In this document: one piece after another, positions 15,804 through 63,163 of the stretch
How positions within the stretch are numbered: the stretch's first letter is position 1
How the letters are laid out: each line of letters starts with the position of its first letter
NCBI GenBank assembly: GCA_029887765.1
Contig: JARXPF010000001.1
Span: 64,488-128,487, forward strand
From: Thermoproteota archaeon
Lineage (GTDB): Archaea; Thermoproteota; Methanomethylicia; Methanomethylicales; Methanomethylicaceae
Length of the DNA: 64,000 nt
Direction: 5' to 3'
Program-made: the position numbers and the translations under genes
The notes under the pieces: generated by a model
Seen by the model: the letters and a program-made list of their open reading frames with translations, nothing else
Database searches by the model: none
What the model was told of the DNA's origin: nothing

Positions 15804-15849
15804 TCAATTTTCCCCAATAAATATTTATGATATAAGATTTAATTAAAAC

Positions 15850-16116: not shown

Positions 16117-16151
16117 GATAAAAATTATAAAGAAAGAAAATAAAAAGTTTT

Positions 16152-19372: not shown

Positions 19373-19435
19373 AAAAAGAGAAAAGAATTATGCATATGGT
19401 GCTATAAATTGTTTAAAGTTAGACGATGGTAGTAG

Positions 19436-19543: not shown

Positions 19544-19548
19544 TTATG

Positions 19549-37702: not shown

Positions 37703-39217
37703 TTGGTGTATTCTATGAAAATAATAATTGATGGAAAGGAAGTTAATGTTCAAGAAGGTGTTACTATTAGAGATTTTTTACCTGAAAAGAAAAATGAATT
37801 CATTATAGCAGTTAAAAAAATAATTGATGTAAAAAGTGTTATTACAAATCTTTATGAAGTTATAACAACAAAAGGTAAAATGATAATAAAGTGGGAATGT
37901 GAAAAAGCATTAGATAAATGGAGACAAATTTATAAAAACTTTGAAGGATGTAAAGTAAGATGGGCAACAAATGAAGCCATAGCTTTTGGTCCTACAATTA
38001 CAAATTTTAAACCATCAATTAAAGAGGTTGAACTTAAGAAAAATGAAGTTACAATAAGTCTTTCTGGAATGAGTTCTGAAGAATCTCATTTAATATTTAG
38101 TAAAAAATTACATACTGGACTATATTTTCCCCCAAATGATGGAGATGTTATGGGAAGAGTTGTCTATGGAAAACATTTACTTGATTTTTTAAAAATAGGA
38201 GATATGATAAAGAAGATTTCTCCAATAATAGAGAAAAGAGGAGGATTTCAATTAATAAGAGCTAATTTGGATTATATACCAAATGATGGAGATGAAATTA
38301 TAACTAAGATGGAAATTAATTTAGATTATGAATCTCCTAAAAATGGAGAACATTTATACAATATGTTAGAAAATGGGTTTTTTGTTTCAAGAAAAACAAG
38401 TAGGTTCATAGCATATGATAAACAAGTAGTATCATTAGAAAGTGAAAAAATTGGAGTAAGAGAAAGAGGAATAGTTTCTATTAGAAATAATGGGAATAAA
38501 GCAGGTTCAATTTACATTTATATTAATAATGCCCCTATATCTATGAATCATACAATAGTAGGAAAAGTTGTAAGAGGATTAGAAATTGCTGATGTAGCTT
38601 TAGAAGGAGATAAAATAGATTTAGTAATAAATCCAATTAGAATAGAATTATTAGGAAGGACTCAAAAAGAAGCTTCATTAATTTTAGAAAAATTGGGAAT
38701 AAAACATATTAGAGATGGAGATGAAAGAGATGATGCAATAATAGTTGATCATTCACCATCAACAACTTTAGAAATTTTTAAGAAAAAAGAAGTAATTTGT
38801 AAAGGTGTACCCAAAGAAAGAATTTTGAAAATAAAATTATATAGAAATTTAGCACCATCAACTATTGATTATTTTGAGAAAGTTTCTAATATAAATATTA
38901 GAAAAATAGGAAAATTGAAAGTATTTTTTACAACAAAAGACGTAGTACTGTTTAAAGGAAATTTAGAATTAGGAAAGATATTATTACCTGAAAATATTCC
39001 AAAAGACTTTGTTTCTCCTGGAATTATAGGAGTGACTAATTCTGTGAAAAAATATTCAGGTATTATTGGAATAAGAATTTCTAAAAGTGATAGATTTGGT
39101 CCAACAGCTGAGGGATTTGAAGGTAGTAATATAATAGGTGAAGTAATAGAAGGATTAGAAAATTTGAAAAATGTTAAGGAAAATGATGAAGTTTATATTA
39201 TGGAGGTAGATAAATGA
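37703..39217 (+). CDS. UPF0288 / methanogenesis marker protein 3-like
   Basis: 504 aa, matching the family's about 500-aa size. Position in a cluster with the McrC paralog and the A2 paralog. Confidence 0.4.
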   Translation: MVYSMKIIIDGKEVNVQEGVTIRDFLPEKKNEFIIAVKKIIDVKSVITNLYEVITTKGKMIIKWECEKALDKWRQIYKNFEGCKVRWATNEAIAFGPTITNFKPSIKEVELKKNEVTISLSGMSSEESHLIFSKKLHTGLYFPPNDGDVMGRVVYGKHLLDFLKIGDMIKKISPIIEKRGGFQLIRANLDYIPNDGDEIITKMEINLDYESPKNGEHLYNMLENGFFVSRKTSRFIAYDKQVVSLESEKIGVRERGIVSIRNNGNKAGSIYIYINNAPISMNHTIVGKVVRGLEIADVALEGDKIDLVINPIRIELLGRTQKEASLILEKLGIKHIRDGDERDDAIIVDHSPSTTLEIFKKKEVICKGVPKERILKIKLYRNLAPSTIDYFEKVSNINIRKIGKLKVFFTTKDVVLFKGNLELGKILLPENIPKDFVSPGIIGVTNSVKKYSGIIGIRISKSDRFGPTAEGFEGSNIIGEVIEGLENLKNVKENDEVYIMEVDK

Positions 39218-39618
39218 AAACTTATGTTGTAATGTTATCACCAGACTCAAACTTAACACCATCAATGTTAGTAGAAAAAATTTCAAAAATAAGTGGAATA
39301 GTATATAAGGAAACTTGTTATGGTCTATTAATAGAAGGTGAAGAAGAAGTAATTGAAGAAGCTATAAGAGAATTGAAAAGTATGGACCCTAATAGAATAT
39401 TCATTAAAATAAGAGGTTATAGAATTGGAGATGAAAGAATTTGTAGAGCAAAAAGAGGAGGGGGGCCAAGGCCAGGATTTTTCATGTTAGGACAAGAAAG
39501 AAGTGTTTTAAAAAATGTTGTAAAAGCTTTAGAAAGTAAAGAAGAAATTTCAATAAAAAAAGAAAAAAAGAAACTAGATTATAACAAACTTAAAAAAATA
39601 ATAAAGGAGGAAATTTAA
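39214..39618 (+). CDS. Small methanogenesis-marker-type protein (Mmp6-like?)
   Basis: 134 aa. Start overlaps the Mmp3-like stop (ATGA). Gly-rich 'RGGGPRPGFFMLGQE'. Family by size and context only. Confidence 0.35.
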   Translation: MKTYVVMLSPDSNLTPSMLVEKISKISGIVYKETCYGLLIEGEEEVIEEAIRELKSMDPNRIFIKIRGYRIGDERICRAKRGGGPRPGFFMLGQERSVLKNVVKALESKEEISIKKEKKKLDYNKLKKIIKEEI

Positions 39619-39619
39619 A

Positions 39620-40171
39620 ATTAAACTCGTTATAGATTCTTCAGACAAGAAAGGAGGAGAAGTTTATAGACATATAATAGAAAGAAGTATTGAAGACTTA
39701 GCTTTAGGTGGAAGTATTAAATGGATTTATGCATATATAAGGCCAGAAATTCCACTTTTTATAGTTAAAATAAATTATAGAGAATATGAAAGAAAAAATA
39801 TACTCAAAGATTTAGCAAAATTTGAAGTTAAATCAAATGCAATAAAGATTATTTTAAATAATGAATTAGATTTATCAGATGCTTTAAGAGCTCTCTGGAG
39901 TGAAATAGGAAGAGATAGAGTAGAACAGATAGGAAGACAAGAAATATTAGTAAAAAATACTGATTTGGAAATTTTAAAGAATCTAAAAATTAGAGAGAGA
40001 ACAATTAGTATATCAGATAAAATTATTGAATTAATAACAAGAATATTGCCTGAAGGTTTTAGAATTAGGCATTTTATAAAAGAAAATGATGTATTAATTG
40101 TATTAGCATCTGAAGATCCGATTAAGAAAGATTGGATTGATATGGCATTAGGGATGATTGTTGATGCTTAA
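39620..40171 (+). CDS. Hypothetical protein (Mmp5/Mmp17-class size); 183-codon open frame with no ATG/GTG/TTG until codon 116
   Basis: The frame is open from the stop at 39602-39604 to 40171. The ORF track only calls the TTG at 39965 (68 aa). AAGGAGG at 39604-39610 is followed 9 nt later by an in-frame ATT at 39620. The upstream 115 codons are non-repetitive and protein-like. Confidence 0.35.
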   Translation: MKLVIDSSDKKGGEVYRHIIERSIEDLALGGSIKWIYAYIRPEIPLFIVKINYREYERKNILKDLAKFEVKSNAIKIILNNELDLSDALRALWSEIGRDRVEQIGRQEILVKNTDLEILKNLKIRERTISISDKIIELITRILPEGFRIRHFIKENDVLIVLASEDPIKKDWIDMALGMIVDA

Positions 40172-41078
40172 ATATTTAATATTTGAAGGAGGGGTTTATA
40201 AACATGAGCTTATTACTGAATTTGTAGAAGATGTTGGCGGTTTTATTATTCAAAAAAATATTATTGGATTAGACTTAATTATGCATATAGCTATTCCTGA
40301 AGATGATTATAAAAAAATTATAGAAATTGCTAATGAAATAAAAGGCAATTTGAAAGAAGCTCCATTAATAGGTATAGAAATTGCTGTAGTAGCTCCAACA
40401 TTATCTAGACATCATTTACCACATCCAGCATGTGATATTGCAGAAAATTTAAGAAGACATGGAGCAAAAACCAATTTAATAGGATTATCTAGAGGAGTTG
40501 GTCAGAAAATTGCTCATATAAATAAAGATGATATTGAACTCATAGAAGAACATGATATTGCAGTTTTTGTTCTTGGAAATTTTGAATATTGTATTAAGAA
40601 TTTCAAATATAAATTGTTTAAGGATATTTCCATACCAATTATTGTAACTGGTGGACCTGAAGAAATGGATTTACCTGGAATTGAAGGATACGTAGGAGGA
40701 ATTGGAAGATATCCTGAAAGATTTAGAATAAATGAAATGATAGAAAAATTAAACTTAATATCTAAATTAGCAGGAGATATAGCTGAAAAAAGAAGAAAGG
40801 AAATGGACTTAGACCCTTTAATTATAGAACCTGCACTTGTAAAAAAAGAAATTGAAAGACAAATACCAGAAGTATTAGAAGCTTTATCACCTAATCCAGT
40901 TACATTAAAGATAGATGGAGTAAGAATAAAATTACCATATGAAGAATACAAGGATAAAGTAAGTTCCATAAATATTGAAGGAAAAAACTTAAAAGATTTT
41001 GCCATTATTAAAAAATCATTAATGAGAGATTATATATTAGTAAAAATTTTACCAGAATCCTTCTTTATTAAGGTGTGA
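40158..41078 (+). CDS. McrC-family paralog (methanogenesis marker protein 7-like)
   Basis: 306 aa. 'LSRHHLPHPACDIAENLRRHGAKTNLI' aligns by eye with McrC '[26 protein letters not shown]'. Confidence 0.5.
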   Translation: MLMLKYLIFEGGVYKHELITEFVEDVGGFIIQKNIIGLDLIMHIAIPEDDYKKIIEIANEIKGNLKEAPLIGIEIAVVAPTLSRHHLPHPACDIAENLRRHGAKTNLIGLSRGVGQKIAHINKDDIELIEEHDIAVFVLGNFEYCIKNFKYKLFKDISIPIIVTGGPEEMDLPGIEGYVGGIGRYPERFRINEMIEKLNLISKLAGDIAEKRRKEMDLDPLIIEPALVKKEIERQIPEVLEALSPNPVTLKIDGVRIKLPYEEYKDKVSSINIEGKNLKDFAIIKKSLMRDYILVKILPESFFIKV

Positions 41079-41082: not shown

Positions 41083-42756
41083 ATGCTATTGTGTGAAAAT
41101 ATTGTTAAAGTATTTCAAAATGGAGTTAAAGCTTTAGATTCAATATCATTAGAATTAAAAAGAGGAGAAATTTTAGGAATATTAGGAGAAAGTGGTGCAG
41201 GAAAAACAACTTTATTAAGAATATTAAGAGGAGTAGAAAGTTTTAATAATGGTAGAATATTGTTTGAAGATCTTGAGATAACTCCAAATTCACCAAAAGA
41301 AGTATTTTACGAATTACAAAAAAGAACAGCTATACAACTTCAAAGAACATTTAGTCTTTGGCCAGATTCTGTTATTGACAATGTTATAAGAGCTTTAAGA
41401 TATCAAGATATACGAGAAGAAACTCTACCTCAAAGTGAAGGAGAATATGAAGAATATAAAATTAAAGCTTTAGAAATATTAAAAATTGTAGGACTTGATG
41501 GAAAAGCAGATTTATGGTCTATGATATTAAGTGGAGGAGAAAAACAGAGGCTAATTTTAGCTAGACAAATTGCAAGAAAACCTAAAATTTTATTACTTGA
41601 TGAACCTGGTACAATGACTGATGTTAAAAGTAGAGAAGATTTGATAAATGCATTAAAAAAAGTGAGAGAAGCTTATAATACAAGTATTCTCTTTGTTTCT
41701 CATAATCCTCAAACTCATTTAAAACTTGCAGATAGAGCAATACTTATTGAAAAAGGTAGGAAAATAATGGAAGGAAAAACAGAAGATGTAATAAATGAGT
41801 TTCTTTCAAAATTAGAAAAACCATTGGAAAAGACAATTATAAAGGGAAAAGAAATTCTTAAAATGGAAAATGTTAATAAAATATATAAAATTATTCCATA
41901 TGGAAAAATATTTGAATTAAAAAATGCTAATTTAACTTTTAGAACAGGAGAAATAACTGCAATTATAGGCCCTTCTGCTGCTGGAAAAACAGTACTCTTG
42001 AGAATGTTAGCAGGATTAGAAATGCCAAATTCTGGAAATATAATGTTATATCATAAAGGTGAATGGATTATTTTAAATAAGCTTTGTAAAAAAAGTTTGA
42101 GAGCTAGAAGAAAAATAAGCATAATGCATCAAGAATTTGATCTACCATATTGGTCTGAAGTATTAAGTTTATTTTCTTCAAGACTTGGAATAAAAGATTA
42201 TAAATTATTAGAAAGAGCAATTAAAAAAGCTGAAAAAATGGGATTAAGTGAAATTCATATAGATTTTCTAAGTAGAATTATGGATTTGCCTGAAAATGAA
42301 TTAGAAATTAAATTAAATGAATTAGAAATTGATAGAAATTTCTTAAAAGAAATTTTTAAGGAAAAAAATCTTGAAAAAAGTAAAGAAATTGCAGAAAAAA
42401 TTTTGAGTTGGTTTAATATAAATCCAGAAATACTTAATAGAAAATCTTATGAACTTTCAGGTGGTGAAAAAATAAGAATTGCACTTGCTTTAGCAATAGC
42501 ATCAAATCCTAAAGTATTATTACTTGATGAGCCTTTTGGTGATTTAGATCCATTAAACTTAAGAAGAGTTGCAAATATTTTAAAAAGAATTAAATTACTT
42601 TTCAAACCAGCAATAATATTAGTAAGTCATCAACTTGATTTTGTAGAAGAAGTAGCAGATAGATGTATATTAATTATTAATGGTAAAATTTTAAGTGATG
42701 GCAATCCTTCGATGGTTATTAAAGAATATATGAGGGTAAAAGAAAATGGAATTTGA
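41083..42756 (+). CDS. Twin-ABC ATPase, Mcr component A2-like (paralog 1)
   Basis: 557 aa with two ABC ATPase domains (Walker A 'GESGAGKTT' and 'GPSAAGKTV'; signatures 'LSGGEKQR' and 'LSGGEKIR'). Confidence 0.6.
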   Translation: MLLCENIVKVFQNGVKALDSISLELKRGEILGILGESGAGKTTLLRILRGVESFNNGRILFEDLEITPNSPKEVFYELQKRTAIQLQRTFSLWPDSVIDNVIRALRYQDIREETLPQSEGEYEEYKIKALEILKIVGLDGKADLWSMILSGGEKQRLILARQIARKPKILLLDEPGTMTDVKSREDLINALKKVREAYNTSILFVSHNPQTHLKLADRAILIEKGRKIMEGKTEDVINEFLSKLEKPLEKTIIKGKEILKMENVNKIYKIIPYGKIFELKNANLTFRTGEITAIIGPSAAGKTVLLRMLAGLEMPNSGNIMLYHKGEWIILNKLCKKSLRARRKISIMHQEFDLPYWSEVLSLFSSRLGIKDYKLLERAIKKAEKMGLSEIHIDFLSRIMDLPENELEIKLNELEIDRNFLKEIFKEKNLEKSKEIAEKILSWFNINPEILNRKSYELSGGEKIRIALALAIASNPKVLLLDEPFGDLDPLNLRRVANILKRIKLLFKPAIILVSHQLDFVEEVADRCILIINGKILSDGNPSMVIKEYMRVKENGI

Positions 42757-44638
42757 AGTAAAATTTTTACCTGAGGGTAAGAAAACTTTAGTAAAAGAAG
42801 GAGCTACAGTTTTTGAAGCAGCTCTAAAAGCTGGTGTTGATCTTATAGCATTATGTGGTGGTAAAGGATTTTGTGGAAAATGTTTAATAGAAATTATAAA
42901 AGGAGAAATTCCTCCACCTACAGAACAAGAATTACGTAAAATTGGTAAAGAAAAAATTGAAAAAGGAATTAGACTAGCATGTCAATTAAAAGTATACGAT
43001 AATTTAATAATAGGAGTGCCAAATCAAAGTAGAATAGGAAAACAGAAATTAGTTATAATGGGCGTAGAACCACCAATTAAAATTAATCCAAATGTTAAGA
43101 AATTTTATTTTGAAATTACTCCTCCATCATTAGATGACCCTAGAGGAGATGATTTAAGAATAAATGAAATTTTATCAAATATAAACAATATTTCATTTAA
43201 TTATTCATTAGTTAAAGAAATGCCATCAATTCTAAGAGAAAGTAATTGGAAAGTCACTTTAACAATAGTAAATAATGAATTAATAAATATACAACCTGGT
43301 GATAAGACAAAAGATTGCTATGGAGTTGCAGTAGATATTGGAACTACAAAACTTGCAGTATTCATAGTAGATTTGTTAAGTGGTGATATATTATTTGCAG
43401 ATGGAATGATGAATCCACAAATAAAATATGGAGAAGATGTGATTTCAAGAATACAATATGCATCTCAAAGTAATGAAAATCTTAGAGAAGTTCAAAATGC
43501 AATAATAAATGGAATAAATGGATTAATAGAAAAAGGATTAAAGGAAACTGGTATAAATAAAGAGGATTTATATGAAATGGTCGTAGTAGGAAATACTGCT
43601 ATGCATCACTTATTCTTAGGATTAAATGTAAAATGGCTTGGTTTAGCACCTTATGCTCCAGTAATAGGAATGGGATATAATGTTAAGGCAAGAGAAATTG
43701 GAATTAACATAAACCCTTCTGGTAATGTTTATACATTACCAAATGTAGCAGGTTTTGTAGGTGCTGATGCTATAGCAGATATCTTAGCATCAAAAATATA
43801 TGAAAAAGATAATTTAACACTACTCATGGATGTTGGAACAAATACTGAAGTAATATTAGGGAATAAATATGAGCTTTTATGTTGTTCCACAGCTTCTGGA
43901 CCGGCATTTGAAGGAGCTCATATAAAATTTGGTATGAGAGCTGCAAGTGGGGCAATAGAAAGAGTGAAAATAAAAGAAGATTTTGAAGTTGAATATTCTA
44001 CAATAGATGATGAAAAAGCAAGAGGAATATGTGGCTCAGGTATTATAGATGCTATTGCTGAAATGTTAAGAACAGGAGTAATAGATACTGCTGGTAGAAT
44101 TGTATTAGAAAATCATAAAAGAGTACGAAAAGGAGAATTTGGTAAAGAATTCATTATTGTATTTAAAGAAGAAACAGCTACAGGTGAAGAAGATATTGTA
44201 ATAACTCAAGAAGATATTAGAGAAATACAGAAAGCAAAAGCTGCAATGTATGCTGGATATATGACACTTATGAGAGTAGGAGGTTTTAAGAAAGAAGATT
44301 TATTTGAAATAATAATTGCAGGAGCTTTTGGAAGTTATATTGATCCATTAAGTGCAAAAATCATAGGAATGATACCTGAATTACCAATATCTAAAATATC
44401 ATTTTTAGGTAATACAGCAGGATCAGGTGCAAGAATATGTTTAAAATCAATTGATTATAGAAAAAAAGCTGAAGAAATTGCTAAAAAAATGAAGTATATA
44501 GAGTTAGCTGTAATGCGAATTTTTGAAGAAGAATATATAAACGCAATGTTTTTACCAAATAGTAGAATTGAAGATTTTCCAGAAGTAATGAGTATTATAA
44601 AAGCACCAATAAATGTGAAAAGATATGTTAAAAAATGA
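42746..44638 (+). CDS. RACo-type reductive activase: N-terminal plant-type 2Fe-2S ferredoxin fused to ASKHA-fold ATPase (COG3894/DUF4445)
   Basis: 630 aa. 'CGGKGFCGKC...LACQ' 2Fe-2S pattern, then a large domain with 'GVAVDIGTTK' and 'LLMDVGTNTE' ASKHA phosphate motifs. Start overlaps the A2 paralog stop. Confidence 0.6.
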   Translation: MEFEVKFLPEGKKTLVKEGATVFEAALKAGVDLIALCGGKGFCGKCLIEIIKGEIPPPTEQELRKIGKEKIEKGIRLACQLKVYDNLIIGVPNQSRIGKQKLVIMGVEPPIKINPNVKKFYFEITPPSLDDPRGDDLRINEILSNINNISFNYSLVKEMPSILRESNWKVTLTIVNNELINIQPGDKTKDCYGVAVDIGTTKLAVFIVDLLSGDILFADGMMNPQIKYGEDVISRIQYASQSNENLREVQNAIINGINGLIEKGLKETGINKEDLYEMVVVGNTAMHHLFLGLNVKWLGLAPYAPVIGMGYNVKAREIGININPSGNVYTLPNVAGFVGADAIADILASKIYEKDNLTLLMDVGTNTEVILGNKYELLCCSTASGPAFEGAHIKFGMRAASGAIERVKIKEDFEVEYSTIDDEKARGICGSGIIDAIAEMLRTGVIDTAGRIVLENHKRVRKGEFGKEFIIVFKEETATGEEDIVITQEDIREIQKAKAAMYAGYMTLMRVGGFKKEDLFEIIIAGAFGSYIDPLSAKIIGMIPELPISKISFLGNTAGSGARICLKSIDYRKKAEEIAKKMKYIELAVMRIFEEEYINAMFLPNSRIEDFPEVMSIIKAPINVKRYVKK

Positions 44639-51392: not shown

Positions 51393-52637
51393 ATGATAGA
51401 AATGCCAGTAAGAATTGCACAAATATCGTGTGGAACTGAATATAGTGGTATACAAAAAGAAATAGAAAAAGCTGCTGAAATGGTTGGAGGAAGAATAATA
51501 ATACCTGAAATAGATTTAAAAGATATAAATGAGGCAGAAGAAGAATTAGGATTTCATGCAGTTAGTAATGGATTGAAAATAATGATGGCAAGAGCAAAAG
51601 CTATTGTAGAAAAAAGAGTAGAAGTAGATGGAGCTTTTTTAGCTACATGTTTTAGATGTGCTGAAGGAGCTTTAGTAAGGAGTATTATTAGAAGATATAT
51701 TCAAAGTAAAAGCAAAATTCCAGTAGTAACATATTCTTTTACTGAAAGAACTAAAGCAGGAACTCTTTTATTGAGAATGGAAGCATTGGTGAACATAGTT
51801 AGTAAAAAACCACTTTTTGCAAGAACAAAACAAGAAGGTATTACAGCAGGCATAGATTCAGGATCAACAACAACAAAAGCTGTAGTTATGAAAGATAATG
51901 AAATTATTGGTATTGGATGGTTGCCAACAACAAGTGTTTTAGAAAGTGGTAAAAAAGCACTTGAAATTGCATTAAAAGAAGCAAAATTAAGTATTGATAA
52001 ATTAGAAGCCATAGGTGTTACAGGTTATGGAAGAAGAATATTAAAAGAATATTATAATGCACAACTTTCAATGGAAGAAGTTTCCACATGTTCAAAAGGA
52101 GCATTATATCTATGTAACAAGCAACAAGGAGATGCTACAGTAATAGACATAGGAGGTATGGATAATAAAGCTATTACACTTTATGATAGTATACCAGATA
52201 GTTTTACAGTTGGAGGAGTTTGTGCTGGAGCTTCTGGTAGATTTCTAGAGACAAGTGCAAAAAGATTAGGAATAACTCTTGATGAATTTGGAGAATTAGC
52301 ACTTAGAGGAGATTATAGAAATGTATCAATGAATGCATATTGTATAGTTTTTGGTCTTCAAGACTTAGTTGCAGCATTAGCTAGTGGAGCAAAAATAGAG
52401 GATGTTGCAGCTGCAGCATGTTATAGTGTAGCTGAACAAGTTTTTGAACAACAACTTCAAGAAATTGATATAAGATATCCAATAATTCAAGTAGGATCTA
52501 CAGCACTTATAAAAGGTCTTGTAAAAGCTATGTCTAATATTTTAAGTACAGATGTTATAGTTCCAGAAAAACCTAATTTAATAGGAGCTGTTGGAGTTGC
52601 ATTAATGGTTTCGGGTATGAAAGAACTTGAAAGGTGA
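51393..52637 (+). CDS. BadF/BadG/BcrA/BcrD-type ATPase with N-terminal extension (methanogenesis marker protein 15-like)
   Basis: 414 aa. '[14 protein letters not shown]' acetate/sugar-kinase-type phosphate-1 motif after an about 150-aa N-domain. Second motif '[12 protein letters not shown]'. Confidence 0.5.
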
Positions 52638-53832
52638 AAAAGTGATTTTAAAATCGATTAAGAAAATTTGTAAAGAAGGAACACATAGAGCTAAAGATTT
52701 CAATGAAACTTTACTTTTTTTAGAAAATATTTATCATAAAGCAGGAATAACAAGAATAGCAGATATAACTGGACTTGATATTATAGGAATACCAGTATTT
52801 ACTTCTATTAGACCTACTGCTGCTGAAGGAGCAATAACTGTCTATAATGGAAAAGGTCATACACCTGAAGTTGCTAAAATTTCAGCAATAATGGAAGGTA
52901 TTGAAAGATATTCAGCTGAACCAGATTATTCAAAGATTATAAAAGGAAGTTATGAAGAATTATCTAAATCATATGAAATTTTAAACCCTAATGAATTAAT
53001 ATTACCATACTATAGACAATATTTTTTTCATGAGGAAATAGAATGGGTATTTGGCTTTTCATTAATAAAAAATAAAGAAATTTTAGTACCTGCTGAAGCT
53101 GTTTTTCATCCATATAGAAGAAATAATCAATTATTTAGAACAAATACTAATGGACTTGCTGCAGGAAATGTTATTGAAGAAGCCATATTACATGCATTAT
53201 TGGAAGTTATAGAAAGAGATGCATGGTCTTTATATGAAATAGGAATTACAAAATCTAAAGATGTAGAAATAGATTCGAATGGACTAGTAAAAGAATTATT
53301 AAAAAAATTTGAAAAAGCTTCTATAAGCGTATACATAAAAGAAATAACTTCAGATATAGAAATTACAACAATAGCAGTAGCACTAGATGATGAAAAAACA
53401 AAAGATCCAGCATTACTTTCACTTGGTATAGGCTGTCACTTAGTTCCTGAAATAGCACTTATAAGAGCTTTAACTGAAGCTGCACAAAGTAGACTAACAA
53501 CAATACATGGAACAAGAGAAGATACTTATAGAGCTGGTTTTGCAAGAATAATAGGATATGAAAGAATGAAAAGATTAAATAAAAAATGGTTTGAAAAATC
53601 TGAGGAAAAAGTAAGATTAAGTGAAATGAAATGTTTTGATAGTTCAGATTTTCTAGATGATATAAATTATATTCTAAATAAGTTAAGAAAAGTAGGATTA
53701 AATGAAGTCATTGTAGTTGATTTAACTAAAAAAGAAATTGAAGTACCTGTTGTTAGAGTAATAGTTCCAGGATTAGAGGTATATGCATTAGATAAAGATA
53801 GAATAGGAAGACGTTGTAAGAGGAAAAAATAA
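52627..53832 (+). CDS. ycaO: YcaO-domain protein (McrA glycine thioamidation-type)
   Basis: 401 aa. YcaO ATP-binding region '[15 protein letters not shown]...EGIERYSAE'. Followed immediately by a TfuA-like gene. Confidence 0.65.
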
Positions 53833-54470
53833 TGAAAATTATAGTATTTTTAGGTCCAAGCTTACCATTAAATGAAGCTAAAAATATAATTTCAGTAGAA
53901 TATAGACCTCCAGCAGGTAGAGGAGATGTTTTGAAGGCTATGGATGAAGGAGCAAAAATTATTGGATTAATTGATGGAGTTTTTTACCAAAGAGCTGCAG
54001 TATCACATAGAGAAATTTTAAGTGCTATTAAAAATGGAGTCATGGTTATTGGAGGAGGAAGTATTGGAGCAATAAGAGCAAGTGAATTAGACATTTATGG
54101 AATGATAGGTGTTGGTGAAATTTATAAATGGTATAAACAAGGAAAAATTATTGGTGATGATGAAGTAGCTGTAGCCTTTCATCCAATAACATATCAACCA
54201 ATTTCAGAAGCATTAGTTAATATTAGAGCAACTCTTGATTTCATTAAAAATATGGGAAAAATTTCTGAAGAAGAAGTTAATTTAATTTTGCGAATTGCAA
54301 AAGAGACGCCCTTCTACTTAAGAAGTTATAATAGGATATTACAAAAAGCAATTCTTGAATTAGGAAAAGAAAGAGTAAAAGAAATTGCAGAATTAGTAAA
54401 TTACAATAAAATAGATCAAAAAAAATTGGATTCTATTGAAGTATTAAAAAAAATAAAGAGTATCATTTAA
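53832..54470 (+). CDS. tfuA: TfuA-like protein
   Basis: 212 aa. Start overlaps the ycaO stop. 'GLIDGVFYQRAAVSHREIL...GGGSIGAIRASEL' TfuA-like. Confidence 0.55.
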   Translation: MKIIVFLGPSLPLNEAKNIISVEYRPPAGRGDVLKAMDEGAKIIGLIDGVFYQRAAVSHREILSAIKNGVMVIGGGSIGAIRASELDIYGMIGVGEIYKWYKQGKIIGDDEVAVAFHPITYQPISEALVNIRATLDFIKNMGKISEEEVNLILRIAKETPFYLRSYNRILQKAILELGKERVKEIAELVNYNKIDQKKLDSIEVLKKIKSII

Positions 54471-54513: not shown

Positions 54514-56112
54514 ATGACAGAACCATTCATTATATTAGACAATGTTTCTAAAAAATTTGGCAATAATTATGTTCTTAAAAATATATCATTTATAATAAAT
54601 GAAGGAGATTGCATTGGAATTTTAGGAAAAAGTGGATCTGGTAAAAGTGTATTAATATCAATGATTAAGGGTTTAAATAATTATGAACCTACATCAGGTA
54701 AAATAATATATAGAATAGCTTATTGTAAATTATGTGGTTTTGTTGAAAGACCAAGTAAAGCTGGAGAGAGATGCCCTAATTGTAAAAATAATTTAGAATT
54801 AATAGAAGTAGATTTTTGGAATGAAAAAACAATTGCACAACATATTAAAAAAAGAGTTGCTATTATGTTTCAAAGAACTTTTGCCCTTTATGGTAATTTA
54901 ACAGTCTATGAAAATATAGTAGAAGCATTTGGTAGAAGATGGAAAGAAGAAAATGCTGAAATTACAAAAAAAGCTTTAAAACTTATAGAAAAAATGGGGC
55001 TTTCTCATAGATTAATTCATATAGCAAGAGATTTAAGTGGAGGAGAAAAACAGAGAGTCGTATTAGCTAGACAATTAGCCATAGATCCAATATTATTACT
55101 TGCAGATGAACCAACAGGAACACTTGATCCCTCAAGTACAAAAATGATATATGATGTACTTAATGAAATAAAAGAACAAAAAATAACAATGATAATTACC
55201 TCACATTTAACAGAAACTATAGAAGCATTAAGTAATAAAGCTATTCTATTGAATCATGGAAAAATTGAGGCTGTGGGAGAACCAAAAGAAATTATAAAAA
55301 TTTTCCTATCAGAAGGTTTAGAAGAAATTAAGGAAGAGAAAACATTAGTAGAAGATGTTATATTAAAAGTAGAAAATGTTAAGAAATATTTCTTTTCCAT
55401 AGATAGAGGAATTGTTAAAGCATTAGATGGAGTTTCTTTTGAAGTATTGAAGGGACAAATATTTGGAATTGTAGGAGTAAGTGGAGCAGGAAAAACTACA
55501 CTTTCAAGAATAATAGCAGGACTAACTACACCTACTTCTGGAAAGGTATTAATAAAAATAGGTGATGAGTGGGTGGACATGAGTGAGCCAGGAATTATGG
55601 GGAGAGGAAGAGCTACTAATTATATAGGAATACTACATCAAGAATATTCTCTATATCCATATAGGACTATATTAGAAAATCTTACAGATGCTATTGGATT
55701 GGAATTACCAGATGAATTTGCCAAATTTAAAGCATTAATGACACTTAAAGCTGTAGGTTTTGAAGAGGACTATGCAGAAAGTTTATTAAATAAATATCCA
55801 GATGAACTAAGTGAAGGAGAGAGACATAGAATAGCACTTTCTCAAGTATTAATAAAAGAGCCTTTATTAGTAATATTAGACGAACCAACAGGAACCATAG
55901 ATCAAGTAACTCAAAAGTATATTATAAAATCTATAAAAAATGCAAGAAAAGAACTTAAACAAACATTTATAATAATTTCACATGATGTAAATTTTGTAAT
56001 TAAAACGTGTGATGAAGCTATTTTACTTAGAAATGGAAATATAATAGCAAAAGGACCTACTACTGAAGTTGTTAAACACTTATTACCTGAGGAAAAATTA
56101 AGTAATGCTTAA
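54514..56112 (+). CDS. atwA: Twin-ABC ATPase, Mcr component A2-like (paralog 2, with Cys4 insert)
   Basis: 532 aa. Two ABC domains (Walker A 'GKSGSGKSV' and 'GVSGAGKTT'; signatures 'LSGGEKQR' and 'LSEGERHR'). Zinc-ribbon-like insert 'CKLCG...CPNC' in domain 1. Confidence 0.65.
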
Positions 56113-57033
56113 TCCAATAACAGATTCTTTTGAAAAATCGATGAATGTAGCTCTAGATCCTTTAAATATAACTTCAAGCTTTTTATTCTCAGTAAATTCA
56201 CCAATACACTCAACAGAAAAACCAACTTCTTCTAAAATATTAATATTCTCCTCTTTAGACAATCCAAAAATAAAGCCCATTGCTGGATATGAAGTTAGCC
56301 ATTCTATAATAGATAAGTCCTTAGGAATTGGTACTTTACTGAGATCAATTAATGCACCCACATTACTTGCTTCACATAACATTGCGAGACTTCCTAATAT
56401 TCCTGGGGCACTAATATCTTTTGAACATTTCACATTATTACTATTAATGAAAGATATTAATGCTGATAACATTTCCTTAATCTTTTTTGAAGATTTTTTT
56501 ATAGTACTATCAAAGCATTTAACCCAACCTTTTTTAATTAAAAATCCATCAATGTCTATTGCTATGAAAATTTTTTGAGAAGGTCTAGCAGTATCACCTC
56601 TTACAACTTTATTTGCAATTCCAATTACTGCAGCATCTACAGAAGAATATGATGTATCTGGATGTGTATGTCCTTTAAGAAGTTTAAGTCCATACTTTTC
56701 TAATCCATCCTTTATTCCTTTTGCAATTTTACTTCTAATTTCTCTTGGTCCTGCTATTACATTTACATATCCAATTGGCCATGCTCCTTTTACAATAACA
56801 TCATTTACATTAACAAGAACAGAATAATAGCCAGCTAACCATGGATCTATAATAACTAAATCTTCAGTTATACCATCAGTTGAAACTACAATATATCTTC
56901 CATTTAAACTTATTATACCAGCATCATCATAATCTATATTTCCAAAAATTTTAATTATCTCACCAATTTCTACTTTCCTAGAAAAACCTTTGAATTCCTT
57001 TGCTATACGAATAATTTCATCTAAAGATTCCAA
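56098..57033 (-). CDS. PurM-like (AIR-synthase-related) ATP-binding protein, methanogenesis-marker-2-like
   Basis: 311 aa. 'DDAGII...VVSTDG' N-domain and C-terminal PurM-like domain. Confidence 0.4.
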   Translation of the reverse strand: MESLDEIIRIAKEFKGFSRKVEIGEIIKIFGNIDYDDAGIISLNGRYIVVSTDGITEDLVIIDPWLAGYYSVLVNVNDVIVKGAWPIGYVNVIAGPREIRSKIAKGIKDGLEKYGLKLLKGHTHPDTSYSSVDAAVIGIANKVVRGDTARPSQKIFIAIDIDGFLIKKGWVKCFDSTIKKSSKKIKEMLSALISFINSNNVKCSKDISAPGILGSLAMLCEASNVGALIDLSKVPIPKDLSIIEWLTSYPAMGFIFGLSKEENINILEEVGFSVECIGEFTENKKLEVIFKGSRATFIDFSKESVIGLSIT

Positions 57034-57084: not shown

Positions 57085-57372
57085 TTGGAGGTGATTAAGA
57101 TTAAAGAAGGAACTGTAGTAATTTATAAAAGAACTGGTACAATTGGAAAAATTGTAGAATTAAAAAATATAGATGGAAAAGTTTGGGCAAGACTTGATAC
57201 TACTAATCTTTTATATGATATAGATTTCTTAGAAGAAGCTAAAGAATATGAGCAAGAAATAGAAAAAATCAATCAAAAAGAAGAAAAGAAAATAGAAAAA
57301 ATCATTGAAGTAAAAGAAATTAAAGATGAAGGAACTATGGATTCTAGTGCCGGAGTGTGTGGTGCAGGTTAA
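57085..57372 (+). CDS. Small hypothetical protein (95 aa; KOW/SH3-like N-terminus, acidic linker, C-terminal 'SSAGVCGAG')
   Basis: ORF only. Located between the PurM-like gene and the HAD-like gene. Confidence 0.3.
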   Translation: MEVIKIKEGTVVIYKRTGTIGKIVELKNIDGKVWARLDTTNLLYDIDFLEEAKEYEQEIEKINQKEEKKIEKIIEVKEIKDEGTMDSSAGVCGAG

Positions 57373-58115
57373 TTTTGAAATTTGCAATAGTATTTGATAA
57401 ATCTGGAACTATTTTAAAACCATGTAGAGTGGCTTTTGACATAAAAAGAAAGAAGCTACTTTATCATATAAGTACATTAAAACTTGTAAAAGATGTTGAT
57501 GGTTATTTACTAAATATAGAAGGAGATATTAAAAAAATAAAGAGTGGAAAACAAAAACCTTTTTTCAAAATAAGTTGTACATTTTCTAAGATTTTACCAA
57601 AAATTGAAGAAGATATAATACTTAAAAAAGAAATTTTAGAAGCTTTAGAAAAAGTTGAAGAAGAAGCAAGTAGACATTGTAATTCTGAAATAGGAACTTG
57701 CACTGCATTAATATTAAACAATTATGGAGAGCCAATATATGCCATAGGACTAGGTGGTAGAATATATGAAGATTTTAAAAATATAGTAGATGAAATAAGG
57801 TCTAAAAGTGATATATTTATAGCAACAGGAAATTGTAAAAATGCTACATTAAAATTCATAAAGAAGTTAAAAATAAATAAACATTTTGTAATATATAATG
57901 CCTCTCCAAAGGAGAAAATGGAATTTGTAAAAATGCTTAAATTATTTTATGCTTATGTTATTATGGTAGGAAATGATATTAATGATTTAATGGCAATGAA
58001 GGAGGCAGATATTTCTATTTTTGTAAATAGAGAAAATGAAGATATTAATTATGATGTAGATTATATTATAAAATCCCTAAATGATCTTCCAAAAATAATA
58101 TCAGTTAAATTTTAA
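57357..58115 (+). CDS. HAD-superfamily hydrolase (P-type-ATPase-like subfamily)
   Basis: 'IVFDKSGT' (motif I) near the N-terminus. 'MVGNDINDLMAMKEADISI' (motif IV). The true start is probably a TTG just after 57372. Confidence 0.45.
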   Translation: MWCRLILKFAIVFDKSGTILKPCRVAFDIKRKKLLYHISTLKLVKDVDGYLLNIEGDIKKIKSGKQKPFFKISCTFSKILPKIEEDIILKKEILEALEKVEEEASRHCNSEIGTCTALILNNYGEPIYAIGLGGRIYEDFKNIVDEIRSKSDIFIATGNCKNATLKFIKKLKINKHFVIYNASPKEKMEFVKMLKLFYAYVIMVGNDINDLMAMKEADISIFVNRENEDINYDVDYIIKSLNDLPKIISVKF

Positions 58116-58688
58116 GATATCATAATAATGACATTGATATTCTGAATGAAAATGAGGTAAAGCTTTTGCTAATTCTATTTCCAACACTCTTAAATTTATC
58201 AATTCATAATCTTTAATTATTGATGACAATCCTTCTTGAATAGATTTAGTACAGAATATACTATGTGGAACAAATCCAGCTGTAGTTATGAAAATGCAAT
58301 TTTTATCTAATTTTATTAATTCATTAATATGTTTCTCATCAAAGCCATATCGTACTTCTTCAAAAAAAGACTTAATACAACAATTAGGATAATTCAAAAA
58401 TCTTCCAATTTCCCAATCTGAAAAATTCTTATTAAAAATTCCAATTTGTAATGATGTATAAGGATCTAAAGCAGGACGAACAGGTGGATTAAAAGATTTT
58501 ACAATTTCTAATTGTAAATTTAATCTCTCAGGAATATCAAAAAGACGATCTTCTTGAAATAATTTTGCAATATGTTCTGCAAAGTTAGGAAAATTAAAAT
58601 ATTTTTCTCTCGCTTCTTTAGGTGAAAGTGTAGAAATATCAAAAATAGTTTCAATAATTTTTTTTAAAGCTAAATAACCTCTTTTCAT
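58101..58688 (-). CDS. Uncharacterized 195-aa protein encoded directly downstream of mcrA (co-oriented, 17-nt gap)
   Basis: ORF contains 'NYPNCC' and scattered Cys/His. No family recognised. Position implies co-transcription with mcrBGA. Confidence 0.45.
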   Translation of the reverse strand: MKRGYLALKKIIETIFDISTLSPKEAREKYFNFPNFAEHIAKLFQEDRLFDIPERLNLQLEIVKSFNPPVRPALDPYTSLQIGIFNKNFSDWEIGRFLNYPNCCIKSFFEEVRYGFDEKHINELIKLDKNCIFITTAGFVPHSIFCTKSIQEGLSSIIKDYELINLRVLEIELAKALPHFHSEYQCHYYDILKFN

Positions 58689-58704
58689 AAAAAAAATAAA
58701 AAAA

Positions 58705-60372
58705 TTAATGACTTGGTATTATTAGATCTCTTTCTCCTGCAGGCATGAATTCTCTAAGAGCACCTTTTCCAAAGCAAAGTCTTGGATGTGTAAAATCAAA
58801 TTTCAAGTCTTTATCAGCAAAAGCAACCTTTATTAATGGATTTGTTGTCCAAGCGTCACCTCTTCCACCATGAGCAGCTGAAACTATTCCAGTATAAGCT
58901 GATTGATGACCTACATTCATAGCATAGTTTGGATAGTTAACTCCTCTTAAGTTAAATACTAGTCCTTCATCACTTCTCCAAGAGAAGCTATTTGCTGAGC
59001 CACATTGATCTTGACAGTCGTAACCATAAAATCCTAATCTTCCCATTTCTTCTTTATGTAATAATTGACTTAAGTACCAACCATTTACACCAGCTGTAGC
59101 ATGACCAGTTGCAAGAGCCACAGATACACCTGCTGCAGCTGCTACAACTGCAGCTCTTTGAGAACCACCAAAGTGAGTCTCCATTAATGCAGGATATCTC
59201 TCATATTGTTCTAATCCATAAATTGATACTTCTGTTGCTATATCTTTAATTATATCCCAACTTGGTTTAACTTTTGCAAATCCACCATATTTCTTCTTTA
59301 CATAGTCTGCACCATAGTAACAGAAATCATCTAATATATTGTCTGTATAAGTACAAGTTGCATATTGTGTAAAGCCTACACCACCAGACATATAACTACC
59401 AAACCAGAATTGATCATAAAGTACTGCTCCCATGGATATGGCTTCTAAAGCCACCCAAACAGGATCATCTGGTTTAACTCTTGAAGCTTGACATATATCT
59501 GCAACATAGCCTAATGGAATTCCTCCAGGTTCATTAGGACCTCTTGCTCTTCTCCAAGGTAGTAATGTGCCCATTTCAATTAGTTCTGCATGTTTTGCGG
59601 CAAATGCAAATTCTCCTACTGCAGCTTCACCTGCCATTAACTTATAAGCATTAATCATAGACATTGAAATTTGCATAGCTGCCCATCTTGACATTGTAGC
59701 ACCATCACATGTCATGGCTACAATTGTGGGCATTCTACAAACTTGATATAATCGTTTGCCAATAGCAGCTTTTAATTGTGCAGCATGATCTGGTGGAAAT
59801 TCTTTATTAATATCTATTAAGAATCTATCATCAATTTCATCAGCTAATTCATCATCACCAGTAAATACTTTAACATAACTATCTGAGACTAATCCAGGAT
59901 GAGTTTCTACCATATGTTCTTGAACTACTGCAGCACCAGGTAGAGCATGATTTAAAACTTCTAAGTAGTGATTTATAGTTTCAGGAGTTACTTCTTTACC
60001 AAGTCTCTTTGTTAGAACCATATGTGCTGCATCAAGACCTACTATAACTGTACGTCTGATATCATGCCACATTTGTTGCATTGCAGCATTATTAATAAAG
60101 TGAAGATCATCTCCTTCACAATAAATATCTGTTCCTGATAAACGATATGGCATTAAAACTCTTTGTCCTAAAGGTATGCCACCTAAGTGAAGGTCTGGAT
60201 TATAAAATGGAATTCCTCTTTCTTTCGCAATTTTTTGAGCAATTTCTACGAATTCTCTTTTCCTTTTTGATTGTTTCCATCCATCATATATATAGAATTT
60301 TGTATATTTTTCTTCAGGAGCTTCTTTAAATTTTCTTCTCAAAGCCTCTATAAACATTTTTTCTTCACTCAT
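58705..60372 (-). CDS. mcrA: Methyl-coenzyme M reductase alpha subunit
   Basis: 555 aa. '[23 protein letters not shown]', 'FGGSQRAAV', '[10 protein letters not shown]' McrA hallmarks. Confidence 0.9.
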
Positions 60373-60383
60373 AAATTCACCCC

Positions 60384-61169
60384 CTATATTCCTTTAATTT
60401 TATTTGGATTAAAACCTGCTTCTGTTCTTAACATATGAATTCTTTGTATAAACTGAATTAATTCATTATCCGTTCTAAAACTTATACCATCAACTCTGAA
60501 TTCACTTGTCCTTTTTCTTAATTCTTCTTCAGGCATAGGCTTTCCTAATGAAATTGGTTTATCTAAAGGTACGCCTACTTGATCCTTAATATATATTACT
60601 TCACCAGTAGTTTTATCATATTGATATCTTCGTAATGCATCAAACATTAGTCCATTTTCATCTAATCTTAAAGCATGCCCATGTACTGTAGCTCCTCTAA
60701 TTCCCACTCTTGCTGGATCAAAGACTTCAGTTTCAATAAGTTCTTTTGCTACTTTTTCTAAATCACGTTCTCTTGCTTCTAATGGTACTCTACCAGAGAG
60801 AACTCCAATATCTACTCCACGATATCTATAATGCCCCATCCATGCTCTCATGTATGGTGTCAATGGAGCGAAGTATACTGAGTCTGTAAATTGAACATAT
60901 CGAATTCTATCTCCTGCTTTTGCACCTGGTGTAGGTTCAACTAATTGTCTAATTGGACAATCTGGCTCTCCCATTTCTTCAAGAGGTGGATGAACACTTT
61001 TATAAGCTTCTCCTGGAGCTCTATGACCTAATATTCTAACTAAATCCTCATCACTTATTGATCTTAGTTTTTCCAATTTATAATTTGGATTAATATACTT
61101 TCTTCTATTAGCAGCTATAGCTGAAGATCCAGGATAATATTGAGGAGTATATTCTACCAATTCACACAC
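60384..61169 (-). CDS. mcrG: Methyl-coenzyme M reductase gamma subunit
   Basis: 261 aa, McrG length. 'HYRYRGVD', '[10 protein letters not shown]'. Located between mcrB and mcrA. Confidence 0.85.
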
Positions 61170-62496
61170 CTCCTTTTATAGAAACTGCAGCTTCATTTAC
61201 ATAACGCAATGGTTCTCTCAACTCAGGAACTTCACTTAAAACTTCTCCAACTATTCCACTAATTTTTTCTGGAGTGTATATAGTAGTTCCAGCATCCAAA
61301 GCTACAGCTGCAGCTACACATGGTATGGCAAAACCTTTACTATGTCTTGTAACTATGTGATTTCCATGGAATACTGCAGGATTTCCTCCTCCATAAATTG
61401 AGTGGCTAAAGAAGGCCATTTCTACACCAGTTCCTGCAACTCTTCCAAAATCAACACCAGGTAGACCTGTCTCTCTTTCAATTAAATCATTAAAGTATAT
61501 TAAAACAGAGGGCACATGTTGCATTGCTCTAGCTGCACCACATGTAACCATAGTTGCAGCCAATAATCCTGCAGCAGCATATGCATTCCACTTACTCACA
61601 TCATCTGTAGTATACAGAGTATATCCAGAAGGCATTTTACTTAATGGTCTTATTACACCATCTTCTAATGCTCTTTTAACAGTAGAAATTACCACACTTC
61701 CAAGAGTTCCATCTTTTCCATTTTCTTTTACAAGATCATAAACTAAATTATTAGCATTTAATCCTTGATATGCTAATCCTAATAGATGGTATCTTTCAAA
61801 GTTTCCAATTGCATCTCCCATTTCAAACATAGCAGTTTGCTCTAATATAGTAGCAAGTGCTGCAGCATTCATAGCATTCCTTTTTGTTATAAGTGCAATA
61901 TGAGCACATGGAATATTTCTTAATGCATAACCCATACCTTCATTTTGCTGAGGAACTGCTAATAAAGAAGAAACATTTCCTCCTAACATATCCATAGTTT
62001 GAGGATATCTACCCCAAACTGCAGTGTGTACAAGATCAGCATCCCATATGCTTACATTGAATTTTTCAATTATTGTACAACATAAAGCAGCAGCAACAGC
62101 TGTTACACCTGTTGTATATTCAACCCCTGCATCTAATCTTTTCCTTGGTACTTTGACAAGTAAATATTTTCCTCCTTTTATTGCTTTAACTTCTGTATCA
62201 TCATTTGGATCAACTTGAAGACATTTTTTCAAATCCTCTGCAATACTTTCTGCATTTTTGACTAAATCAAGTTTTAGAGATCTTCCCCTTATTATACAGA
62301 ATTTTCCTCCAACTTCACCAATGGCTAAAGCCTTCTCTATACCTTCTAAATTTACTGCAACAAATTGCTTTATATTATTAATTATTTTTTGTATTGCTGG
62401 ATTCTTTAGAGGACTTATAGCTTCTATTGGTATATTAGTATCAAAAAGTCTACCACGGTCGTCATATAGGTCGATTTTATCTGAATATTTTGCCAT
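61162..62496 (-). CDS. mcrB: Methyl-coenzyme M reductase beta subunit
   Basis: 444 aa. N-terminus '[15 protein letters not shown]' matches the canonical McrB start. SD 'gaggatgggg' about 10 nt upstream. Confidence 0.85.
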
Positions 62497-62593: not shown

Positions 62594-63163
62594 TTATGAA
62601 GATTGTTGTGAAAGTATTTTATCTACAAGTATATCAATCGATTCTAATACGTTCTCTTCACCAACTTTTATAGAAACTATGGGCACTTTTATGAATTTTT
62701 CAATTATACTTGCAACAATAGGTGCACAAACAATTCCATGAACTTTATCTTGTGTAGCTTTTATTGCATTAATAATTGCATCTTCAATAGTTGCTACTGG
62801 ATATTCTTTAATTAGAACTTTTTTACCTTTAATAATTATTTGATGCTTTGAAAGAGTATCTAAACAAACCCTCGCAGCTATTACACCAATAACTATATCA
62901 GAAGAAGGATTTTCTAATGATTTAAAATAATTAATTATAGCTCTGAATGTAGAAACTCTCAAATCTCTTGCTTCACTTATTATTTTATTTAATGTACTAA
63001 TTGGTATTCCACATCCTTGACTTAATTCTTTTAATGAAATTTTCCTTCGCTTCATAATTGAACGTAAAGTTGAGGAAAATGCTTCATTAGAAATTAAAAG
63101 AGCTTCCATGAGTTCTTCATATGAACTTTTTTCTATCATATATTCACCCCCATATCTCTTCAT
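62594..63163 (-). CDS. HTH-type transcriptional regulator with C-terminal domain of unknown function
   Basis: 189 aa. 'ISLKELSQGCGIPISTLNKIISE' HTH. Start overlaps the stop of the ABC ATPase upstream. Confidence 0.4.
   Translation of the reverse strand: MKRYGGEYMIEKSSYEELMEALLISNEAFSSTLRSIMKRRKISLKELSQGCGIPISTLNKIISEARDLRVSTFRAIINYFKSLENPSSDIVIGVIAARVCLDTLSKHQIIIKGKKVLIKEYPVATIEDAIINAIKATQDKVHGIVCAPIVASIIEKFIKVPIVSIKVGEENVLESIDILVDKILSQQSS

Follow-up and report, generated by a model that had tools for sequence, protein, structure and literature searches.

Mcr is the source of nearly all biogenic methane, and its heterologous production is blocked because the factors that mature it are incompletely known. 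The classical mcrBDCGA operon has mcrD and mcrC inserted between the mcrB and mcrG genes, and an mcrBGA layout is already known from ANME-1 and alkane oxidisers (PMC9081873). According to the same review, the mcrBDCGA operon of Verstraetearchaeota is complete, and methanogens without exception retain the two accessory genes in an mcr operon. Among the proteins acting on Mcr, DUF2098 was co-purified with McrC and resolved as a subunit in the structure of the Methanococcus maripaludis MCR activation complex (PMC12176620), Mmp5 and Mmp15 are encoded in an apparently essential "MCR activation operon" (bioRxiv 10.64898/2026.03.18.712670), and YcaO installs the McrA thioglycine (PMC5589413). Several McrA modifications are still without a known enzyme (PMC7581889), and the partner of YcaO in methanogens that lack TfuA is an open question (PMC5589413). 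In this study, we analysed a 64,000-nucleotide (nt) stretch of a Methanomethylicaceae genome (Thermoproteota; contig JARXPF010000001.1, positions 64,488 to 128,487), hereafter the window, in which an open reading frame (ORF) of 195 amino acids (aa) follows mcrA. This ORF encodes a DUF483 protein, which we put forward as a candidate Mcr accessory protein; the sequence family itself is known but uncharacterised.

We determined the gene order from a six-frame ORF listing and direct reading of the junctions. The results showed that the minus strand carries mcrB (61162..62496, 444 aa), mcrG (60384..61169, 261 aa), mcrA (58705..60372, 555 aa) and the 195-aa ORF (58101..58688), in that order. All three subunits passed their NCBIfam equivalog cut-offs by wide margins (McrB, TIGR03257, 683.5 bits against 516.25; McrG, TIGR03259, 392.8 against 172.1; McrA, TIGR03256, 1015.7 against 767.75) and are canonical McrABG. 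A first-pass annotation of this DNA had described contiguous mcrB, mcrG and mcrA genes with an 8-nt B/G overlap and an 11-nt G/A gap, and an mcrD-like/mcrC pair about 21 kb away; the coordinates and profile matches at 36.7-37.7 kb confirmed both statements. The co-oriented ORF containing NYPNCC was also as described, its ATG being the 17th nt past the mcrA stop, with 16 nt (T7-A-T8) between. Every related locus that covers these mcr genes had mcrBGA without mcrC and mcrD, including those of the cultured strains LWZ-6 (L010) and LCB70 (L015). The review's statement on mcrBDCGA is therefore contradicted by all Methanomethylicia loci examined, which is a small correction.

With a score of 95.5 bits (cut-off 25), the 195-aa protein belongs to Pfam DUF483 (PF04467), residues 56-172 aligning to positions 1-120 of the 122 in the profile. 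All 57 close homologues were already annotated as DUF483, those of public Candidatus Methanomethylicia genomes included, and the closest protein, 99% identical, is labelled Candidatus Methanomethylicaceae archaeon (formerly Verstraetearchaeota). The earlier statement that the ORF matches no recognised family was thus incorrect, NCBI already labelling it DUF483, and an orphan or novel family was ruled out. The window protein is a plain member that shares with the Pfam DUF483 proteins a full-length match and the RPALDP, YPxCC, GF[IV]P[CH]SxxC and LPHxH motifs. Among 19 Methanomethylicia sequences (42-99% identical to the window protein), 32 columns were invariant; NYPNCC occupies residues 99-104. 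Across 14 sequences from several archaeal lineages, the invariant positions were R71, P72, G95, Y100, P101, C103, C104, D117, T136, G138, F139, P141, C146 and P178, with H181 nearly invariant and position 142 being Cys or His. This CC…(C/H)xxxC pattern, with its C/H swap, resembles a Zn or Fe-S ligand set, suggesting from the sequence that DUF483 may bind metal.

The protein is small and mostly helical, and its AlphaFold2 model is confident (pLDDT 93.5). Together with the 32 invariant columns and the Cys motif shared by the whole family, this indicates a genuine gene under constraint. Foldseek found no fold neighbour in the PDB (best E = 0.61, TM < 0.2) and nothing significant in BFVD (best E = 1.2), and a profile search of PDB sequences with DUF483 returned only noise. 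The profile and structure search that the first-pass annotation had suggested for this protein therefore succeeded in its first half, with the DUF483 profile match, and gave no PDB fold neighbour in its second. A likeness to the HdrB CCG domain, which has a similar CC…C spacing, was considered and dropped, there being no Pfam CCG match and no fold match. Full-length members are very few: when 1.84 billion representative proteins were searched exhaustively with the profile, E ≤ 1e-3 was reached by 23 clusters and E ≤ 1e-10 by 13. Its named hosts are Methanomethylicia, Nezhaarchaeota, one metagenome-assembled genome (MAG) labelled "Bathyarchaeota", Methanopyri and Methanocaldococcus, and every named full-length member comes from a lineage that includes Mcr-encoding archaea. 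A whole-word literature search for DUF483 and PF04467 found no paper tying the family to Mcr.

We then surveyed the DUF483 loci, scanning one genome per species and mapping neighbours by tblastn. In 29 of the 30 informative Methanomethylicia species loci, the gene immediately 5' of DUF483, in the same orientation, was mcrA; a 31st locus begins inside the DUF483 gene and is uninformative. Orthologues downstream of mcrA in relatives, which had been proposed as a check, were thus found in these 29 loci and also in a deeper Verstraetearchaeota lineage. The Methanomethylicia genes form a syntenic block, ABC–HTH–mcrBGA–DUF483–(HAD)–(DUF2098)–mmp2–(A2)–(TfuA)–(YcaO)–(Mmp15), where HTH stands for helix-turn-helix. 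Since the whole block is syntenic, adjacency inside Methanomethylicia is weak evidence alone. In the deeper lineage, a 6-gene insertion with the Pst (phosphate-transport) operon and the McrA glutamine C-methyltransferase (TIGR04014) stands between DUF483 and HAD–DUF2098, and the mcrA–DUF483 junction is unbroken. This retained junction strengthens the evidence for linkage.

Outside these groups, DUF483 was found in other arrangements in three further Mcr-encoding lineages, each time among Mcr-maturation genes. In Nezhaarchaeota, the order is McrA glutamine C-methyltransferase (505 bits against a cut-off of 360)–DUF2098–DUF483–Mmp5–Mmp15 with 4-nt overlaps, and the TTG start of DUF483 overlaps the TGA stop of DUF2098 (TTGA), indicating translational coupling. 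In loci L041 and L042, YcaO–mcrBGA is divergent from DUF483–Mmp5–Mmp15, with Mmp7/17/6/3, McrC and A2 nearby. In the Bathyarchaeota-labelled MAG (L037/L038), mcrD and an A2-like gene precede A2–YcaO–DUF483–HdrCB. Counting mcrA–DUF483, four lineages show four arrangements, in each of which no more than two genes separate DUF483 from an mcr, mmp or ycaO gene, and these differing arrangements go beyond inherited synteny. This cross-lineage association of DUF483 with Mcr-maturation genes is new here. The first-pass proposal of a novel Mcr-associated factor for assembly, cofactor insertion or modification holds in part: the gene is conserved and occurs in mcr, mmp or ycaO clusters of three further lineages; the family is not new, and the role is read from gene neighbourhood only.

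The start of the gene in L037 deserves a separate remark. The DUF483 frame there overlaps the ycaO stop and is open from it (8857..9001), its 48 codons encoding the family's N-terminal helix, and neither L037 nor L038 has a canonical start before the called TTG, which lies 137 nt downstream of ycaO. The gene may use a non-canonical start codon, its start may have been called wrongly, or the sequence may contain an error.

The same neighbourhoods bear on the reading that DUF483 serves the reductive-activation machinery of MCR (DUF2098, Mmp5, Mmp15, McrC and A2), for example as a small protein with an Fe-S cluster or another metal that assists assembly of the activation complex or delivers electrons to it. 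This reading would account for the coupling of DUF483 to DUF2098 in Nezhaarchaeota with Mmp5–Mmp15 next, for the recurrence of the DUF483–Mmp5–Mmp15 run in L041/L042, for HdrC and HdrB after DUF483 in L037, and for the position of DUF2098, a resolved activation-complex subunit, two genes from DUF483 in the window. However, activation is needed by all methanogens, yet most of them lack DUF483, and outside methanogens the family associates with radical SAM and methyltransferase enzymes. DUF483 was also not found with McrC purified from M. maripaludis, a species that may lack the gene (PMC12176620), and the window already has a complete set of McrC, McrD, Mmp3/5/6/7/15/17, A2 and DUF2098. We therefore regard a dedicated activation role as unlikely. 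Replacement of a missing Mmp by DUF483 was ruled out, all of these genes being present in the window.

We next considered how DUF483 is expressed. The whole gap between mcrA and DUF483 is the T7-A-T8 tract (58689..58704, minus strand), an archaeal two-U-tract terminator-like signal. It has been documented in M. maripaludis that efficient aCPSF1 binding requires at least two tracts of U4 or longer, which also give top termination efficacy (PMC8716108). A run of at least six T was found within a few bases of the mcrA stop in all 29 of 29 Methanomethylicia loci, usually as T6-N-T7. Among 12 loci with more than 45% GC (the window has 29%), 8 had the pattern T≥5-N-T≥6 a single time within about 14.5 kb, both strands counted, and that at the mcrA 3' end. 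T-tracts also trail mcrA in Nezhaarchaeota and in L041, where DUF483 is not downstream. As the tract is conserved in every lineage, and also present without DUF483 downstream, its behaviour is that of a terminator of mcrBGA. The first-pass annotation had listed a terminator ahead of the 195-aa gene as evidence that would count against its proposal; such a signal is thus present in archaeal terms, and the description of the ORF as fused onto the mcr operon is doubtful.

The translation signals differ in the same direction. GGAGG-type Shine-Dalgarno (SD) motifs were found at mcrB (SD-like GAGGATGGGGATGA upstream), mcrG (AAGGAG directly upstream) and mcrA (GGGGGTGA upstream), whereas the sequence upstream of DUF483 is T and A only, with no SD. 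Archaeal internal operon terminators reduce, but do not abolish, the expression of downstream genes (PMC10450193). The terminator-like tract together with the missing SD suggests that DUF483 is not an equal fourth mcr cistron and would be expressed far more weakly, through read-through transcription or a weak promoter belonging to the gene itself. Depending on the clade, 0 to about 25 nt separate the T-tract from the DUF483 ATG, so a fixed promoter geometry is not evident. In the Methanosuratincola and Methanomethylicus clades, the tract is positioned as the TATA box of a leaderless mRNA would be; it may serve as such, with no consistent geometry across clades. A scan for bacterial-type promoters and hairpin terminators gave 33 promoter-like sites against 38 expected and is uninformative for an archaeon, and the oligo-T analysis was used instead.

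These results make it extremely improbable that DUF483 is a true fourth cistron of an mcrBGA-X mRNA encoding a stoichiometric Mcr partner or subunit. The shared strand, the 16-nt gap and the conserved adjacency would fit such an arrangement, but the conserved two-U-tract signal (PMC8716108) lies exactly in the gap, DUF483 has no SD, unlike mcrB, mcrG and mcrA, and the gene is missing from most Mcr-encoding archaea. To our knowledge, the solved MCR structures contain alpha, beta and gamma subunits only.

The family is also associated with radical SAM enzymes. Radical SAM–DUF483 modules in Thermus phages and prophages, together with InterPro fusions of DUF483 to radical SAM or methyltransferase domains, have been reported, and the phage and cyanobacterial DUF483 proteins occur in DNA-modification contexts (bioRxiv 10.1101/2024.08.14.607894). 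We independently found a fusion of a radical SAM domain with two DUF483 domains (P0070), a B12-type radical SAM gene that overlaps DUF483 by 8 nt in L043, and another such gene two genes from DUF483 in L032. Searches for phage homologues by tblastn, with the window protein and two core-only relatives as queries, returned none, and BFVD structures gave no match, so that for the phage link we rely on the cited preprint.

Taken together, the neighbouring genes and the radical SAM links favour a small metal-binding helper. Our preferred explanation, to which we assign a probability of roughly 0.45, is that DUF483 is a low-level, metal-binding accessory of Mcr maturation. Located behind the two-U-tract terminator of the very highly expressed mcrBGA, it would be made far below Mcr levels and act sub-stoichiometrically. 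It may help or adapt the enzymes that modify McrA before assembly, namely YcaO and/or radical SAM methyltransferases of class B, the glutamine C-methyltransferase being one example. A metal-binding helper of protein-modifying enzymes would then have been recruited to McrA maturation in Mcr-encoding Thermoproteota. That DUF483 is related to Mcr at all is probable, and the modification-helper mechanism specifically is more tentative. The protein is a credible lead and not a demonstrated Mcr factor.

The inclusion of YcaO raises the narrower idea that DUF483 is the partner of the McrA-thioamidating YcaO, replacing or supplementing TfuA in sulfur delivery for thioglycine. TfuA-independent YcaOs function in vitro on sulfide alone, a point that counts against such a partner. 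Nayak et al. noted that Methanopyrus kandleri and Methanocaldococcus have thioglycine without TfuA and left open an "as yet-unidentified partner" (PMC5589413). In two Thermoproteota-type lineages, DUF483 is beside a ycaO without a neighbouring tfuA: it abuts the ycaO 3' end in L037/L038, the usual slot of TfuA, and it is divergent from ycaO in L041/L042; its conserved Cys could carry a persulfide; and euryarchaeal DUF483 is found in the TfuA-lacking lineages Methanocaldococcus and Methanopyrus. A TfuA substitute is thus an attractive idea, but a weakly supported one. Methanomethylicia, the window included, carry both TfuA and DUF483 (TfuA was detected in 21 of the 26 loci that reach that far), DUF483 is not beside ycaO in Methanocaldococcus or Methanopyri, and neither Pfam nor Foldseek indicated homology between DUF483 and TfuA. 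We consider this partnership quite improbable.

Several observations weigh against an accessory role in Mcr maturation. The 64-kb window has no radical SAM gene, an McrA-modifying enzyme of this type included, and the 14-kb block around DUF483 is entirely syntenic in Methanomethylicia. Most methanogens lack the DUF483 family, so it cannot be a core Mcr factor, and no DUF483 protein has been linked to Mcr experimentally. In L023, of the Methanomethylicia clade, DUF483 is surrounded by housekeeping genes such as those for CDC48 and IleRS, and a GGGAGG motif provides it with a ribosome-binding site. The gene is away from mcr, mmp and ycaO in Methanocaldococcus indicus, in a Methanocaldococcaceae-like MAG, in Methanopyri, where it lies between two KaiC-like genes, and in L044 and the Methanococcales-like contig L043. 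Far relatives with the core motif only were found in Woesearchaeota.

A rival explanation is that DUF483 is unrelated to Mcr and is a generic partner of another enzyme, such as an uncharacterised B12 radical SAM protein, its position being synteny inherited in a gene-dense methanogenesis island. The conserved terminator-like tract before a gene without SD, the synteny of the whole block across the class, the unlinked copies in the Methanococcales-like, Methanopyri and L023 loci, the DNA-modification settings of the phage and cyanobacterial proteins, and decayed copies in other methanogen-like genomes are all consistent with it. Set against this are the four different gene orders that place DUF483 close to mcr, mmp or ycaO genes in as many lineages, the mcrA junction that survived a 6-gene insertion on the other side of DUF483, and the translational coupling of DUF483 to DUF2098. 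On balance, we find the absence of any Mcr role somewhat unlikely. Even if DUF483 proves unrelated to Mcr, the conserved two-U-tract terminator still marks the true end of mcrBGA.

Two cases of decay were seen. In L049/L050 (7950..8315), the L049 copy is frameshifted and has lost its N-terminus, and it is identical on at least 24 contigs of a methanogen-like organism. The L044 copy (9001..9530) has two frameshifts, which at a coverage of 1.9x are possibly errors.

A bolder version of the accessory role is that DUF483 is the missing partner or catalyst of a lineage-specific McrA maturation step. It would be either a TfuA-independent YcaO partner or a cofactor-binding subunit for an orphan modification (didehydroaspartate, hydroxytryptophan or further C-methylation) with a radical SAM or U32-type enzyme. 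We regard this version as improbable; if true, DUF483 would found a new fold of metalloproteins, which in phages and methanogens alike work alongside modification enzymes. In M. indicus (L033, 6953..8704), a U32-family gene follows DUF483 at a distance of 12 nt and resembles TrhP (263 bits, below the cut-off), a prephenate-dependent, O2-independent hydroxylase; the U32 pairing is absent in L032. The MCR III of Methanocaldococcaceae contains 6-hydroxytryptophan without a known enzyme (PMC7581889), and a tie between this residue and the DUF483–U32 pairing is speculative.

The 3' end of the window copy differs from that of its nearest relatives. A frameshift near the 3' end sets the window DUF483 apart from its 99%-identical public relative (209 aa; the closest relatives have 209-210 aa). 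The coding sequence of the 14-aa tail SDIIFGRSFRDFII survives in another frame, where it overlaps the convergent HAD gene at the latter's 3' end; three-frame translation against P0001, P0002 and P0005 located this remnant of the clade-specific C-terminal tail (TDIIFGRSFRDFII*) at about 58061..58105 on the minus strand. The tail is confined to the nearest clade, and the 195-aa form stops where most family members stop, so the frameshift is probably harmless; it may also be an assembly error. Every family-conserved position is retained in the 195-aa form.

The genes around mcrBGA–DUF483 were annotated as well. Convergent with DUF483 is a gene for a HAD or P-type-ATPase-like soluble protein of 252 aa (57357..58115, plus strand; PF00702, 33 bits, with partial P-type ATPase matches). 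It overlaps by 16 nt the gene for the 95-aa DUF2098 protein (57085..57372, plus; PF09871, 69.7 bits). The pair is syntenic throughout Methanomethylicia and is also kept beside the glutamine C-methyltransferase in the deeper lineage (L045-L048). A methanogenesis marker 2-like, AIR-synthase-related protein with AIRS and AIRS_C domains is encoded at 56098..57033 (minus; TIGR03267, 245 bits, under the cut-off of 365). On the plus strand lie Mmp15 (51393..52637; TIGR03286, 651 bits, above the cut-off), YcaO (52627..53832; TIGR03266, 490 bits, above the cut-off), TfuA (53832..54470; NF033432, 263 bits against 235) and component A2 (54514..56112; TIGR03269, 767 bits, above the cut-off). Upstream of mcrB, the minus strand encodes an HTH (Cro/C1-type) protein (62594..63163; PF01381, 27.3 bits) whose position 5' of mcrB is syntenic across the class. 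The segment 62594..63911, which places this protein, with its PrpR_N-like C-terminal part, and an ABC ATPase immediately upstream of mcrB, has the same make-up throughout Methanomethylicia (L001-L030), and the HTH protein is a candidate mcr regulator.

The distant accessory cluster is at 36-45 kb of the window. The mcrD-like gene (37317..37670, minus) scored 57 bits against 25 with Pfam MCR_D and only 55 bits against 100 with NCBIfam; it forms an operon with mcrC (36703..37350, minus; TIGR03264, 279.7 bits against 213.5) and Mmp5/DUF2112 (36273..36710, minus). Mmp3 (37703..39217), Mmp6 (39214..39618), Mmp17/DUF2113 (39605..40171, start about 39620; 149.9 bits) and Mmp7 (40158..41078) are on the plus strand. 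Mmp17, between Mmp6 and Mmp7, was overlooked by the ORF listing: it has no ATG, GTG or TTG before codon 121, and 9 nt beyond an AGGAGG motif (39605-39610) stands an ATT (39620) that is probably its non-canonical start. Directly after Mmp7 is an A2 paralogue, a double-ABC ATPase (41083..42756, plus; TIGR03269, 305 bits, under the cut-off), itself followed by a RACo-type corrinoid reductive activase (41083..44638 for both, plus). A2-like paralogues adjoin mcrD also in the Nezhaarchaeota, L037 and L041 loci. The maturation set of the window thus comprises McrC, McrD, Mmp3/5/6/7/15/17, two A2-type ATPases, YcaO, TfuA, the Mmp2-like protein and DUF2098. Farther away, at 6850..22440, are genes of methylotrophic methanogenesis and energy metabolism (two MtaA/URO-D-type methyltransferases, a corrinoid protein and an aldehyde:ferredoxin oxidoreductase), along with an HdrD-like CCG protein beside an FAD-binding (GlcD-like) protein.

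The analysis adds DUF483, its invariant Cys residues and its possible partners DUF2098, Mmp5, Mmp15, YcaO and the glutamine C-methyltransferase to the list of testable candidates for Mcr maturation. Direct experiments are possible, as two Methanosuratincola strains among the loci (M. petrocarbonis LWZ-6 and M. verstraetei LCB70) are in culture.

Compared with known systems, the locus departs from the classical mcrBDCGA operon in that an 8-nt mcrB/mcrG overlap replaces the mcrD and mcrC found there between mcrB and mcrG. DUF483 resembles McrD and McrC as a small non-catalytic gene tied to the mcr structural genes, McrD and McrC being thought to act in assembly or activation (PMC9081873). It is unrelated to them in sequence, and whereas they are near-universal and lie 21 kb away, DUF483 is lineage-restricted and sits behind a terminator-like tract. 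With TfuA it shares the slot after ycaO in L037/L038, but the two show no homology, and they coexist in Methanomethylicia. In the phage radical SAM–DUF483 modules and the fusions, a radical SAM enzyme is accompanied by the core domain (GYPxCC ... PCSxxC) that the window protein also has; those DUF483 proteins consist of the core only, without the N-terminal helices and the LPHxH end, and their contexts are DNA modification and not Mcr. DUF2098 belongs to another family with another predicted structure, and it has the experimental support that DUF483 lacks. Like DUF483, it is a small protein known only by its DUF, and it was first flagged by phyletic profile or gene context (PMC3226654) and then found bound to McrC (PMC12176620).

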